A DNA stretch of 61,640 bases, counting the filler, from Fonticula-like sp. SCN 57-25 (taxonomy: Eukaryota), in the NCBI GenBank assembly GCA_001724245.1. It is 11 parts of 11 records of this genome, joined end to end, with 100 filler letters (N's around TTAATTAATTAA, not from the genome) between each part and the next. Parts side by side here need not be neighbours in the genome. Positions count along the whole stretch, not along the records: positions 22,394 to 27,876 come from MEDX01000566.1; 10 more parts are not named here. One strand, 5' to 3'. Each line of letters begins with the position of its first letter. Position 1 is the stretch's first letter. The notes beneath the pieces were generated by a model, which searched no databases, was not told the origin of the DNA, and was given only the letters and a program-made list of their open reading frames with translations. Below are positions 23,208-26,752 of this stretch, one piece after another. The translations under genes were made by a program, and so were the position numbers.

Positions 23208-24739
23208 CTAGCGCCGCTTCGTGTGGTCGGGCTCCTCAATCCCAGTGGCGACGACCGACACGCGCACCCGCCCCGTGAGGCTCTCATCAAAGCTCGAGCC
23301 GAAAATGATATTTGCGTTCTCGTCAACCTCTTGGCGCACCCTGAGACATTAAAGTCAGCAATTCATGTAAAAAACACCCAAAAAAATGTCATAAAAATGC
23401 ACAAAAAGACACAAAAACGGACCTGTTGGCAGCCTGGTCGACCTCAAAGAGGGTCATGTCGGACCCGCCGTTGATATTGATGAGCACTCCCTTGGCGCCG
23501 CGGAGCGTCGCGTCCTCGAGGAGCGGGTTGCTGATGGCCGCCTCGGCCGCCCGCAGCGCGCGGTTCTCGCCCTATTTCAACACAATTTAGCGCTGAAAAC
23601 TGCCAAAAAGGCGTATTTTTCGCCCAAAAAAGTGTCCAAATTACGTACGTCGCACTCGCCCGTGCCCATCATGGCCTTTCCGCTGCCCTTCATGACGGCG
23701 CGGACGTCGGCAAAATCGAGGTTGATGAGGCCCGGCATCACCATGAGGTCGGTGATCGAGCGCACGCCGTCGTGCAGCACCTCGTCGGCCATCTTGAAGG
23801 CGTCGGCGAGCGACGTGCGCTCGTTCGCTCGCCTGAACAGGTTCTGGTTGGGGATCACGATCAGCGTGTCGACCACCTTGACCATCTCGCGGATGCCGGC
23901 CTCGGCGAGGCGCATCCGGTGAAGGCCCTCAAAGTGGAAGGGGCGTGTGACGACGCCGACGGTGAGGACGCCTTGCTCGCTCGCGGCGCGCGCGATGACG
24001 GGGGCGGCGCCGGTGCCGGTGCCGCCGCCCATGCCGGCAGTGATAAACACCATGTGAGATCTGGCGCAGCGTCAGAGGGGATCGGAAAGAAACGTAGTTG
24101 AAAAGACGCATGAAAAGAGCCAAATGGAATAAAAATGACGCAAAGAAAAGGAAAATGAATATGAAAAACGCACCCCTTGATCGACTCGACGACATCGTCG
24201 AGCGACTCGCTGGCGGCCGCGGCGCCAATGTCGGGCTTGGCTCCCGCGCCGAGGCCCTTGGTGAGCGAGCGGCCGAGCTGCACGCGACGCTCGCACAGAG
24301 ACTTAAAGCCACGTCAGCGCGCACAAAGAAAGGCAAAGCATATTCATACCTGCGAGACGGCCTGCGCATCCGTGTTGGCGATCACAAACTCGACGCCCTG
24401 GAGGCGGCGCGCAATCATGTTGTTGACGGCATTGCCACCGGCGCCTCCCACACCCACAACCGAGATGCGCGGGCGCGCAAAGAGGTCCGTGTCCAAAGAC
24501 GGAGACGCGGGCGCCGCCGTCACCGACGCCTTTGGCTCCTTTCATCACCAATTCCCAATGGTTAGCAACCCGGGATCACGAGGAAGCGCATCATGACGTA
24601 CAGCGGCGGCGGGAGCGCGCGCAGCCGCAGCAGCAGCGCGGCCAATAATGGTAACATGGCGCGCCTGAAGCCCCTCGGCGGCCGACCGAAGCACCGTCGG
24701 GACCGTCCTTAGCGCCGACCCGGACCACAGCATCGGCAT
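23208..24739 (-). CDS. ftsZ: FtsZ with N-terminal mitochondrial-type presequence and 5 introns; short-tailed FtsZ2-type paralogue
   Basis: Spliced: [21 protein letters not shown]..|..[26 protein letters not shown]|..[10 protein letters not shown]..|..[30 protein letters not shown]..|..NPLLED..|..[34 protein letters not shown]. First intron is 24539-24601. Confidence 0.96.
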
Positions 24740-24966
24740 GGCGATCCTCTTGTTTCAAACCAACAAAACGAAACCAAATTTGGCGCGCCTTTCGATTTCT
24801 TTTTTTGGGCCCTTTTTCGTCGCTTTTCACAACCAATTTTGTTCATCTTCTTTGTATTAAATATTCTCGATAGACATTTCCCAACCACAGACACACGGCA
24901 TTTTTAACCCACAGCTTCATTCTAATGGGAGATTTTGTGAAAATGTACATGGACTATAGGAAGCGA

Positions 24967-26752
24967 TTACTTCTTGGCATCGAGCTGCTTGGCAATGTCG
25001 CCGGCCTTCTTGCGGGCATCCTCGATATCGCCGACCATGTAAAAGGCAGCCTCGGGAAGGTCATCGTGCTTGCCGTCAAGGAGCTCCTTGAACGAGCGGA
25101 TGGTGTCCTTCAGGCCAACGAGCTTGCCGGGGAAGCCAGTGAAGACCTCGGCAGTCTGGAAGGGCTGCGAAAGGAACTTCTGGATCTTGCGGGCGCGCTC
25201 GACGGTGAGCTTGTCCTCCTCAGACAGCTCATCCATACCGAGAATGGCAATGATATCCTGGAGCGACTTGTAGTCCTGGAGGGTGCGCTGGACGCGCGAG
25301 GCGATCGAATAGTGCTCCTCACCGACGATGCGGGGGTCAAGCATGCGCGACTTGGAGTCGAGGGGGTCGACGGCGGGGTAGATACCGAGCTCGGAAATGG
25401 AACGCGAGAGCACGGTGGTGGCGTCAAGATGGGCAAAAGTGGTGGCCGGGGCCGGATCGGTAAGATCGTCGGCGGGCACGTAGATGGCCTGCACCGAGGT
25501 AATGGAACCCTTGTGGGTGGTGGTAATGCGCTCCTGCATGCCACCCATGTCGGTGGCGAGGGTGGGCTGGTAACCGACGGCGGAGGGAATGCGGCCAAGA
25601 AGCGCAGACACCTCAGAACCGGCCTGGGTGAAACGGAAAATGTTGTCAATGAAGAGCAGCACGTCCTGACCCTCCTCGTCGCGGAAGTACTCGGCAAGAG
25701 TGAGGGCAGTGAGGGCGACACGGGCGCGGGCGCCCGGGGGCTCGTTCATCTGGCCGTACACGAGGGCAGCCTTGGAGGCGCCGTCAACCTTGATGACGCC
25801 CGAGAGGATCATCTCGTGGTACAGATCGTTACCCTCACGGGTGCGCTCACCGACACCACCAAAGACGGAGTAACCACCGTGCACCTTGGCGACGTTGTTG
25901 ATGAGCTCAGTCATGAGCACGGTCTTGCCGACACCGGCACCACCGAAAAGACCAATCTTGCCACCCTTGGCGTAGGGGGCGAGGAGATCGACGACCTTGA
26001 TGCCAGTCTCGAGAATCTGGGGCTCGGTCGACTGGTCGGCGAAGGTGGGGGCCTCGGCGTGGATCGAGGCGGTCTTCTTGGAAACAATCGGGCCGCGCTC
26101 ATCGACGGGCTCGCCAATGACGTTCATGATACGGCCAAGAGTCTCGGCACCGACGGGAATGGTGATGGGGGCACCAGTGTCGACGACCTTCTGGCCGCGG
26201 CAGAGACCCTCAGTACCCTCCATGGCAATGGTGCGGACGGTGTTCTCACTGGGAAAAAGGGAAAAAAGGGAAAAAGTCAGCACTCTACGTGGCAGAAAAA
26301 AATAGAAAAACGCACCCAAGGTGCTGGGCGACCTCAAGGACAAGGCGGAAGCCGGCATCCTGAACCTCGAGGGCGGAGAGAATGGCGGGCAGGTTATCAT
26401 CGAACTGGACGTCGACGACGGCACCAATGACCGAGCGAATCTGACCAATGTTCTTCTTGACCTGAGTGGCCTGGTAACGGACTGCAATTTTCCAAGCATT
26501 AGAAAAAGCGCGACAAATTATTGAAAGAGAAAGGCAGCGGAAAAACCAGACCGAGGAAGAAAAAAGACCCACGGAAAGAGGGAAAAAGCAACGTGTTTCA
26601 GAAACGTGGCACTGCCACAATTTTCCAGCGCCGAAAGCAGAAAAAAAAATGGAGAGATAACAACAAAGTAGCTCAGCTTAAAGAGGAGAAAACGTACGGC
26701 CAAGGCGCCCGCCCGTAAGGGCGAGCTTCTTCATGCCAACCAACGCAGCCAT
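24967..26752 (-). CDS. ATP2: Mitochondrial F1-ATP synthase beta subunit, nuclear-encoded, 2 introns
   Basis: Short presequence [58 protein letters not shown]. Confidence 0.98.

Follow-up and report, generated by a model that had tools for sequence, protein, structure and literature searches.

Mitochondrial FtsZ is an endosymbiont relic: many protists have kept it, whereas in animals and fungi dynamin has taken its place. It forms an inner division ring in Dictyostelium, red algae, jakobids and malawimonads, and the nuclear genomes of Dictyostelium (FszA and FszB) and Cyanidioschyzon merolae (FtsZ1-1 and FtsZ1-2) each encode a mitochondrial pair of which one member is without a C-terminal tail. 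The 2015 abstract of Leger and co-workers reportedly records FtsZ from jakobids, heteroloboseans, a malawimonad, stramenopiles, amoebozoans, a breviate and an apusomonad, and lists no opisthokont. Here we describe a 61,640-base stretch of DNA from assembly GCA_001724245.1 (the window, meaning the whole stretch that was analysed), in which a complete, intron-containing ftsZ gene lies beside ATP2, the gene for the beta subunit of the F1 ATP synthase, on the fifth of its contigs (contig 5, 22394-27876), and part of a second ftsZ gene lies on the first (contig 1). The reading that we favour, with somewhat more confidence than doubt, is that the two genes belong to a Fonticula-related nuclear genome with a mitochondrial FtsZ pair, and that an ancestral division system survives there in an opisthokont lineage.

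Such a system would be unexpected on the accepted view that FtsZ disappeared from the opisthokonts (an earlier note on this DNA had started from its loss in animals and fungi); one source indeed counts FtsZ among the things 'that Opisthokonta have lost' (PMC6219506). Another describes every eukaryotic supergroup as having some members that retain the FtsZ machinery, and in those passages names no opisthokont (PMC5377515). No report of FtsZ in Fonticula, in nucleariids (Parvularia, Nuclearia) or in Holomycota was found in full-text searches, in which a paper on tubulin that came up for Fonticula had no relevance and those that came up for the nucleariids and mention FtsZ were, judging by title and abstract, on different subjects; FtsZ genes may already be present, unnoticed, in public Fonticula alba or nucleariid data.

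Structure of the contig-5 ftsZ gene and its linkage to ATP2

The contig-5 ftsZ (Table 1) is a genuine spliced nuclear gene. Its six exons join into 1149 nt with 0 internal stop codons, and, scanned singly, exons 2-6 tile in order the Pfam profiles Tubulin (PF00091) and then FtsZ_C (PF12327). In alignment with bacterial FtsZ over the whole of the GTPase and C-terminal domains the spliced protein is free of gaps at every exon junction, and the nucleotide-binding motif GGGTGTG and the T7 synergy loop NLDFAD, both in exon 4, are intact and align with the bacterial motifs. Exon 4 on its own scores 201 bits against TIGR00065 (single exons were scored; the equivalog cut-off of 295.2 bits applies to the whole protein). 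The introns, of 63, 48, 113, 77 and 82 nt, have the donors GTACGT, GTATGA, GTGCGT, GTACGT and GTCCGT, all end in AG and carry a CTGAC- or CTAAC-like branch-site box near each 3′ end; GTRCGY donors and CTGAC branch sites are likewise found in ATP2 and in a P4-ATPase gene on contig 1. The GC content at third codon positions (GC3) is 0.86 in ftsZ as compared with 0.79 in ATP2. Five introns of host style together with a host-like GC3 argue that the gene has long been resident in the host genome, and to judge from its sequence it is apparently functional.

Both ends of the encoded protein depart from the bacterial pattern. The N terminus extends about 55 residues beyond the start of bacterial FtsZ, partly on an exon of its own, and residues 1-45 of this putative mitochondrial presequence include 5 Arg and 13 Ala with 1 acidic residue. 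At the other end the stop codon falls 8 residues past the core domain, and the bacterial linker and DIPAFLRR-type docking peptide (D-I/V-P-x-F-L-R-R/K) are absent; a convergent neighbour gene ends 147 nt past the ftsZ stop, so there is scant room for another ftsZ exon.

The ftsZ gene lies downstream of ATP2 on the same strand, and this linkage was checked by placing on contig 5 the Logan contigs of four public runs, namely X1, a metagenome from a bioreactor and perhaps the source sample itself; X2 and X3, whose figures are identical and which are probably one data set; and X4, an aquatic metagenome from a separate study with a slightly different strain. A 1259-nt contig from X1 covers 24126-25384 with 0 differences and spans ftsZ exons, the spacer and the 3′ end of ATP2, while X2 supplies a contig over 24126-24881 and X4 supplies contigs over 24802-25146 (spacer into ATP2) and 22767-23343 (neighbour gene into the 3′ end of ftsZ). 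Sequencing depth in X1 is 13-16 along most of contig 5, 9.7 on a 123-nt piece and about 6-7 on two pieces at 27352-27717. Because contigs from public runs bridge the junction between ftsZ and ATP2, a chimera is unlikely. Moreover, among the differences listed for X4, six of the seven in a piece over 23470-23696 fall in ftsZ intron 4, and all 4 substitutions and the 1 gap in a piece over 25921-26304 fall in ATP2 intron 2. The strain differences thus cluster in non-coding sequence, which fits exons under selection and speaks against either a chimera or a dead gene.

These results bear out most of what the earlier note had read from the sequence. It had described a complete FtsZ with five spliceosomal introns and an Arg/Ala/Ser-rich presequence, and its coordinates proved exact; it had put ATP2 about 230 bp away on the same contig, where the distance is 227 bp; and its conclusion that ftsZ is a nuclear gene and not contamination agrees with the five introns, the ATP2 linkage and the junction-spanning contigs. 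The chimeric contig that it had named as a danger is countered by contigs from X1, X2 and X4 that bridge the ftsZ flanks and by a broadly even X1 depth.

Identity of the host and the second FtsZ

The host was placed with ATP2. When the main exon of this gene (426 aa) was searched against a protein database that includes NCBI, UniRef and EukProt records, its own open reading frame (ORF) came first, followed by a near-identical environmental protein (P0122). Among the 120 matches listed, the best named one is F. alba at 89% identity and the next are zoopagomycote, kickxellomycote and chytrid fungi at 82-86%; all those with names belong to a fungus, an aphelid or Fonticula, bar a plant transcriptome record and a nematode. 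A careful maximum-likelihood tree of 37 rows (LG+C20+F+G4; support given as ultrafast bootstrap/Shimodaira-Hasegawa-like approximate likelihood-ratio test, SH-aLRT) places ATP2 in a clade of eight that also comprises F. alba and six environmental sequences (100/99), beside fungi and aphelids, and a quick tree of 61 rows agrees on the F. alba clade (support 99). Within that clade, support for F. alba as the direct sister of the ATP2 of the window is weak (86/55). The trees contain no apusomonad, breviate, amoebozoan or unicellular holozoan sequences because none of these lineages occurs among the top 120 matches. From its place in the F. alba clade next to fungi and aphelids, ATP2 makes the host look like an early-branching holomycotan; on this sequence evidence it looks like an uncultured protist related to F. 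alba, on the fungal side of the opisthokonts (Holomycota). The samples that carry it are from a bioreactor, wastewater and freshwater.

Here, too, the earlier note, which had considered an early-branching holomycotan, is supported, by the tree of one gene. It had also enlisted ATM1, NEO1 and eIF4A-III in support of this host, and that part of its case falls away: the three lie on contigs 4, 1 and 2, respectively, none is physically linked to ftsZ, and the contig set is of mixed origin according to tetranucleotide composition and gene content. Contig 2 in particular is a poor match to contig 5 in composition (r = 0.52), and its eIF4A-III may well come from another organism. Being unlinked to ftsZ and on contigs of mixed origin, these extra fungal markers carry little weight.

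Uncultured relatives of the host appear to be widespread, since the environmental ATP2 proteins P0124-P0129 and P0205, 88-90% identical to the ATP2 of the window, form a sister group inside the Fonticula clade. Four of these proteins are ORF fragments of 418-419 aa, the length of the ORF called in the window, which hints at a shared intron position. When metagenome loci were scanned with ATP2, the 80 loci listed were at most 81% identical and lay mostly on long bacterial-looking contigs; no close relative of the host was found among them.

Contig 1 begins within the second ftsZ gene, and the part present encodes FtsZ_C positions 1-94 and a 70-residue tail ending KKAFWKHW. This partial protein scores 154.9 bits against TIGR00065, whose 295.2-bit cut-off is for the whole protein, and is 56-57% identical to the contig-5 FtsZ. 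A search with it returned alphaproteobacterial proteins and a single named eukaryote, the 'Mitochondrial FtsZ2' of Malawimonas californiana (P0300), at 62% identity. The strings NVLY and GADRAKQA are common to the contig-1 FtsZ and P0300 and absent from the three bacterial references aligned. Both proteins also have a basic, aromatic tail finishing in W and are without the docking peptide, the three bacterial references ending IPSFLRR or (I/V)PAFLR(R/K). When the representative library was searched by HMMER with P0300, it yielded P0444, P0514 and P0457, which have long N-terminal extensions and tails ending KKYW, KRNF and KRHW. A careful FtsZ tree of 42 rows and 339 core columns unites the contig-1 FtsZ with Malawimonas FtsZ2 and these three proteins in one clade (98/94), with which it has NVLY, GADRAKQA and a tail with an aromatic last residue in common; this assigns the contig-1 copy to the mitochondrial FtsZ2 type. 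The aromatic-ending tail of FtsZ2-type proteins is a candidate partner- or membrane-binding motif. P0510, P0459 and P0507, further matches of the P0300 search with N-terminal extensions, fell among Caulobacter- and Hyphomicrobiales-type bacteria in a quick tree and were left out of the careful tree.

Contigs 1 and 5 most probably come from one genome. Their tetranucleotide correlation (r = 0.92) is the highest of all 55 contig pairs, GC3 on contig 1 is 0.88 and 0.80, close to the two values given above for contig 5, and the GTRCGY donors and CTGAC boxes of the contig-1 P4-ATPase introns match those of ftsZ and ATP2.

As a separate observation, short repeats resembling TTTTCATGA(C/A)ATTTTCATG follow one another at 650-770 (+) on contig 1, directly downstream of the second ftsZ. 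T-rich 'TTTTCAT / ATGACATTTTT' strings similar to these repeats occur within introns 3 and 5 of the contig-5 ftsZ.

Descent of the contig-5 FtsZ and alternative explanations

Searched with exon 4 (best 120 of 8000 scored), the contig-5 copy matched alphaproteobacterial-looking proteins only, at 78-84% identity, and the full-length protein is 70-76% identical to the best alphaproteobacterial proteins listed. Of 110 loci scored, it is 63-75% identical to the 86 of alphaproteobacterial type. The remaining 24, at 43-58% identity, belong to other Pseudomonadota, the phylum from which the outgroup loci of the FtsZ trees were sampled. The named best matches are scattered over Azospirillum, Inquilinus, Caulobacter, Brevundimonas, Rickettsia, Parvibaculum and others. 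In the careful tree the protein lies within the alphaproteobacterial side (100/100), and on these comparisons the contig-5 FtsZ is of alphaproteobacterial descent. A search of the ESM Atlas returned generic bacterial FtsZ_C clusters only. Short 'src' proteins among the FtsZ matches, considered as eukaryotic transcripts, were rejected as soil-catalogue fragments; a plastid-type FtsZ was likewise rejected, the affinity of the contig-5 copy being alphaproteobacterial. The plastid-type representative that was seen (Closterium) is 44% identical to the Malawimonas FtsZ2 query.

Within the alphaproteobacterial side the position of the protein is less firm. In a quick tree of 57 rows it is sister to the mitochondrial FtsZ2 clade (SH-aLRT 83), whereas the careful tree leaves it in a basal alphaproteobacterial polytomy, apart from that clade (96/91). 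The best tree constrained to unite all six eukaryote-type rows equals the free tree in likelihood (its log-likelihood is higher by 0.02; approximately unbiased (AU) test, p = 0.49), and long branches may draw the FtsZ2 clade toward the outgroup. Between retention and an old gene transfer the data for the contig-5 copy accordingly do not decide. The label 'mitochondrial-type' that the earlier note had given to this protein is therefore sustained in part: the alphaproteobacterial affinity and the introns agree with it, but the contig-5 copy is not firmly joined to mitochondrial FtsZ2.

Our working proposal, to which we give an even chance, is that environmental relatives of Fonticula divide their mitochondria with an ancestral two-paralogue FtsZ ring derived from the alphaproteobacterial endosymbiont, and that Holozoa, Fungi and possibly the cultured F. 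alba each lost it independently. On the favoured reading both FtsZ proteins would be imported into the mitochondrial matrix by way of their presequences and would polymerize, probably jointly, as an inner division ring. By analogy with known pairs, the tailed FtsZ2-type subunit may contact the membrane or a partner while the tail-less subunit co-polymerizes with it. Bacterial-type mitochondrial division would then have been kept in at least one opisthokont lineage and have been lost separately in Holozoa and in Fungi. Neither MinC/D/E nor Dnm1 was noticed among the long ORFs of the window, 20 of which were scanned against Pfam, no dedicated search having been made.

Several observations weigh against the favoured reading, and most of them suit an alternative that we consider unlikely though by no means negligible, namely that the contig-5 FtsZ was a later alphaproteobacterial gift, for example from prey or an endosymbiont, to the Fonticula or nucleariid lineage; the gene would then have gained introns and a presequence, and its role could be in mitochondria or in symbiont control. 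The identities to alphaproteobacterial FtsZ given above are high for both the full-length protein and exon 4 (matches listed), while Malawimonas FtsZ2 is only 53-56% identical to three bacterial FtsZ proteins; the 120 exon 4 matches listed include no named eukaryote; the careful tree groups the protein with bacteria and not with the FtsZ2 clade; and in the alignment it has no derived residue in common with that clade. The one named mitochondrial reference was of the FtsZ2 type, that of Malawimonas, and the shared genome of contigs 1 and 5 is argued from composition and intron style. Yet the protein sits in a basal polytomy and was not nested inside one particular bacterial family in any tree built, and joining it to the mitochondrial clade costs nothing in likelihood. 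Nor does high identity to bacteria decide for a recent transfer: ATP2, whose endosymbiont origin is undisputed, retains 76-80% identity to AtpD from long metagenome contigs of bacterial appearance. The five introns, the host-like codon use and the clearly mitochondrial type of the partner paralogue count against a recent arrival, and a tail-less and a tailed FtsZ are the usual pair in mitochondria.

The favoured reading also depends on the host, and its placement draws on one conserved gene, in whose tree the sole non-holomycotan eukaryote is one nematode. ATP2 might accordingly mislead, and the host be an apusomonad, a breviate or an amoebozoan instead of an opisthokont, which we think quite improbable: those lineages and unicellular holozoans are missing from the tree and the other 'fungal-looking' markers sit on unlinked contigs of a mixed set, but none of those lineages appears among the 120 best ATP2 matches, where F. 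alba is the best named, and the F. alba clade is strongly supported. Hardly credible, finally, is an artefact in which a bacterial ftsZ was joined to a eukaryotic contig by chimeric assembly or in which the gene is a dead pseudogene. The data are metagenomic and the set holds at least one bacterial contig; against this, spliceosomal introns are foreign to bacterial ftsZ and the five here splice out cleanly, both flanks of the gene are bridged by contigs, the reading frame is open with its catalytic motifs intact, and differences between strains avoid the exons.

The window as a whole and comparison with described systems

The window consists of 11 contigs of about 5.5 kb each, apparently sorted by length and separated by ten linkers, each made up of TTAATTAATTAA between two N-runs (at 5507-5606, 11107-11206, 16705-16804, 22294-22393, 27877-27976 and five further positions). 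In tetranucleotide composition contig 3 comes close to contig 5 (r = 0.85), contigs 4, 9 and 11 follow (r = 0.74-0.81), and contigs 2, 6, 7, 8 and 10 are more distant (r = 0.39-0.67). Contig 8 is bacterial, as it carries an uninterrupted pump gene of the AcrB family and a gene for an outer-membrane efflux protein.

Table 1. Positions of the genes and gene parts in the window (positions count along the whole stretch)
Feature	Position	Strand	Contig	Remarks
ftsZ, complete gene	23208-24739	-	5	6 exons, 5 GT-AG introns, 382 aa, without C-terminal tail
ftsZ exon 1	24602-24739	-	5	start codon and Arg/Ala-rich N-terminal extension (putative mitochondrial presequence)
ftsZ exon 2	24350-24538	-	5	end of extension and start of GTPase domain; Pfam Tubulin 1-58
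ftsZ exon 3	24174-24301	-	5	Pfam Tubulin 67-103
ftsZ exon 4	23649-24060	-	5	Pfam Tubulin 111-187; GGGTGTG and NLDFAD T7 loop
ftsZ exon 5	23423-23571	-	5	Pfam FtsZ_C 12-59
ftsZ exon 6	23208-23340	-	5	Pfam FtsZ_C 62-95 and TAG stop
Spacer, ATP2 stop to ftsZ start	24740-24966	-	5	227 bp; bridged by contigs of public runs
ATP2 (F1 ATP synthase beta)	24967-26752	-	5	500 aa; exons 26752-26698, 26481-26316 and 26248-24967; ATG at 26752, stop 24967-24969; two introns, donors GTACGT and GTGCGT
Second ftsZ, partial	3-641	+	1	213 aa; stop 642-644; contig starts within gene
Spliced neighbour gene, 3′ part	22394-23060	+	5	convergent with ftsZ; 17.4-bit match to Exo_endo_phos, weak and under the Pfam cut-off
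Neighbour open frames	26891-27777	+	5	low-complexity protein without Pfam family; divergent from ATP2
AcrB/CusA-type resistance-nodulation-division (RND) pump, small ORF and outer-membrane efflux protein (OEP)	39352-44590	+	8	pump 1063 aa, uninterrupted; from Pfam scan

Some further contigs hold features of their own. On contig 2, WD40 genes at 5762-6124 and 7386-8684 (-) are neighbours and adjoin the DEAD-box helicase that the earlier note called eIF4A-III; their near-identical starting peptides make the pair look like a tandem duplication. Contig 6 has, at 28700-33400, a roughly 1.6-kb unit in three tandem copies with similar minus-strand open frames in each (for example 29587-29991, 31276-31707 and 33034-33396) and a GC content below that of contig 5; the single ORF of this array that was scanned (29258-29965) matched no Pfam family. 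Contig 10 (GC 66%; r = 0.51 with contig 5 in composition) carries a single open frame of 1491 aa at 51178-55650 (+), coiled-coil-like by eye and with a CLIP1-type zinc knuckle at its end, and contig 11 encodes the C-terminal region of a separase at 56280-57731 (-; Peptidase_C50, 264 bits).

If the favoured reading is true, the loss of FtsZ moves later in opisthokont history and must have happened at least twice, independently, within the opisthokonts, and a fungus-related organism would be at hand for studying the change from FtsZ-based to dynamin-only division. For an organellar FtsZ, the contig-5 protein is also unusually conservative. The locus is clearly interesting for how mitochondrial division evolved.

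Of the described systems, the mitochondrial FtsZ2 of Malawimonas californiana (A0A0E3ST15) resembles the contig-5 copy in being nuclear-encoded, of alphaproteobacterial type and provided with an N-terminal extension, and it groups with the contig-1 copy in the careful tree. The contig-5 protein is 55% identical to it overall and 60% over 328 core columns, and differs in being tail-less and much closer to bacteria; the hosts differ as well, a malawimonad there and a relative of opisthokonts here. With the pairs of the amoebozoan Dictyostelium and the red alga C. merolae, the likeness lies in the combination of members as these pairs are generally described. Alphaproteobacterial FtsZ (Azospirillum, Inquilinus, Caulobacter; loci L081-L160) has the same GTP-binding and T7-loop motifs in a core 63-75% identical to that of the contig-5 protein, but the contig-5 gene has 5 introns and an extension of about 55 residues, and is without the linker of about 100-250 residues and the DIPAFLRR peptide, by which bacterial FtsZ docks FtsA, ZipA or MinC. 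The FtsZ1 and FtsZ2 of plant plastids, tail-less and tailed paralogues that co-assemble in an organelle division ring, offer an analogy only, plastid FtsZ being of cyanobacterial origin and serving a different organelle. Set beside these systems, the FtsZ genes of the window add a new lineage to a kind of system already described, mitochondrial FtsZ.

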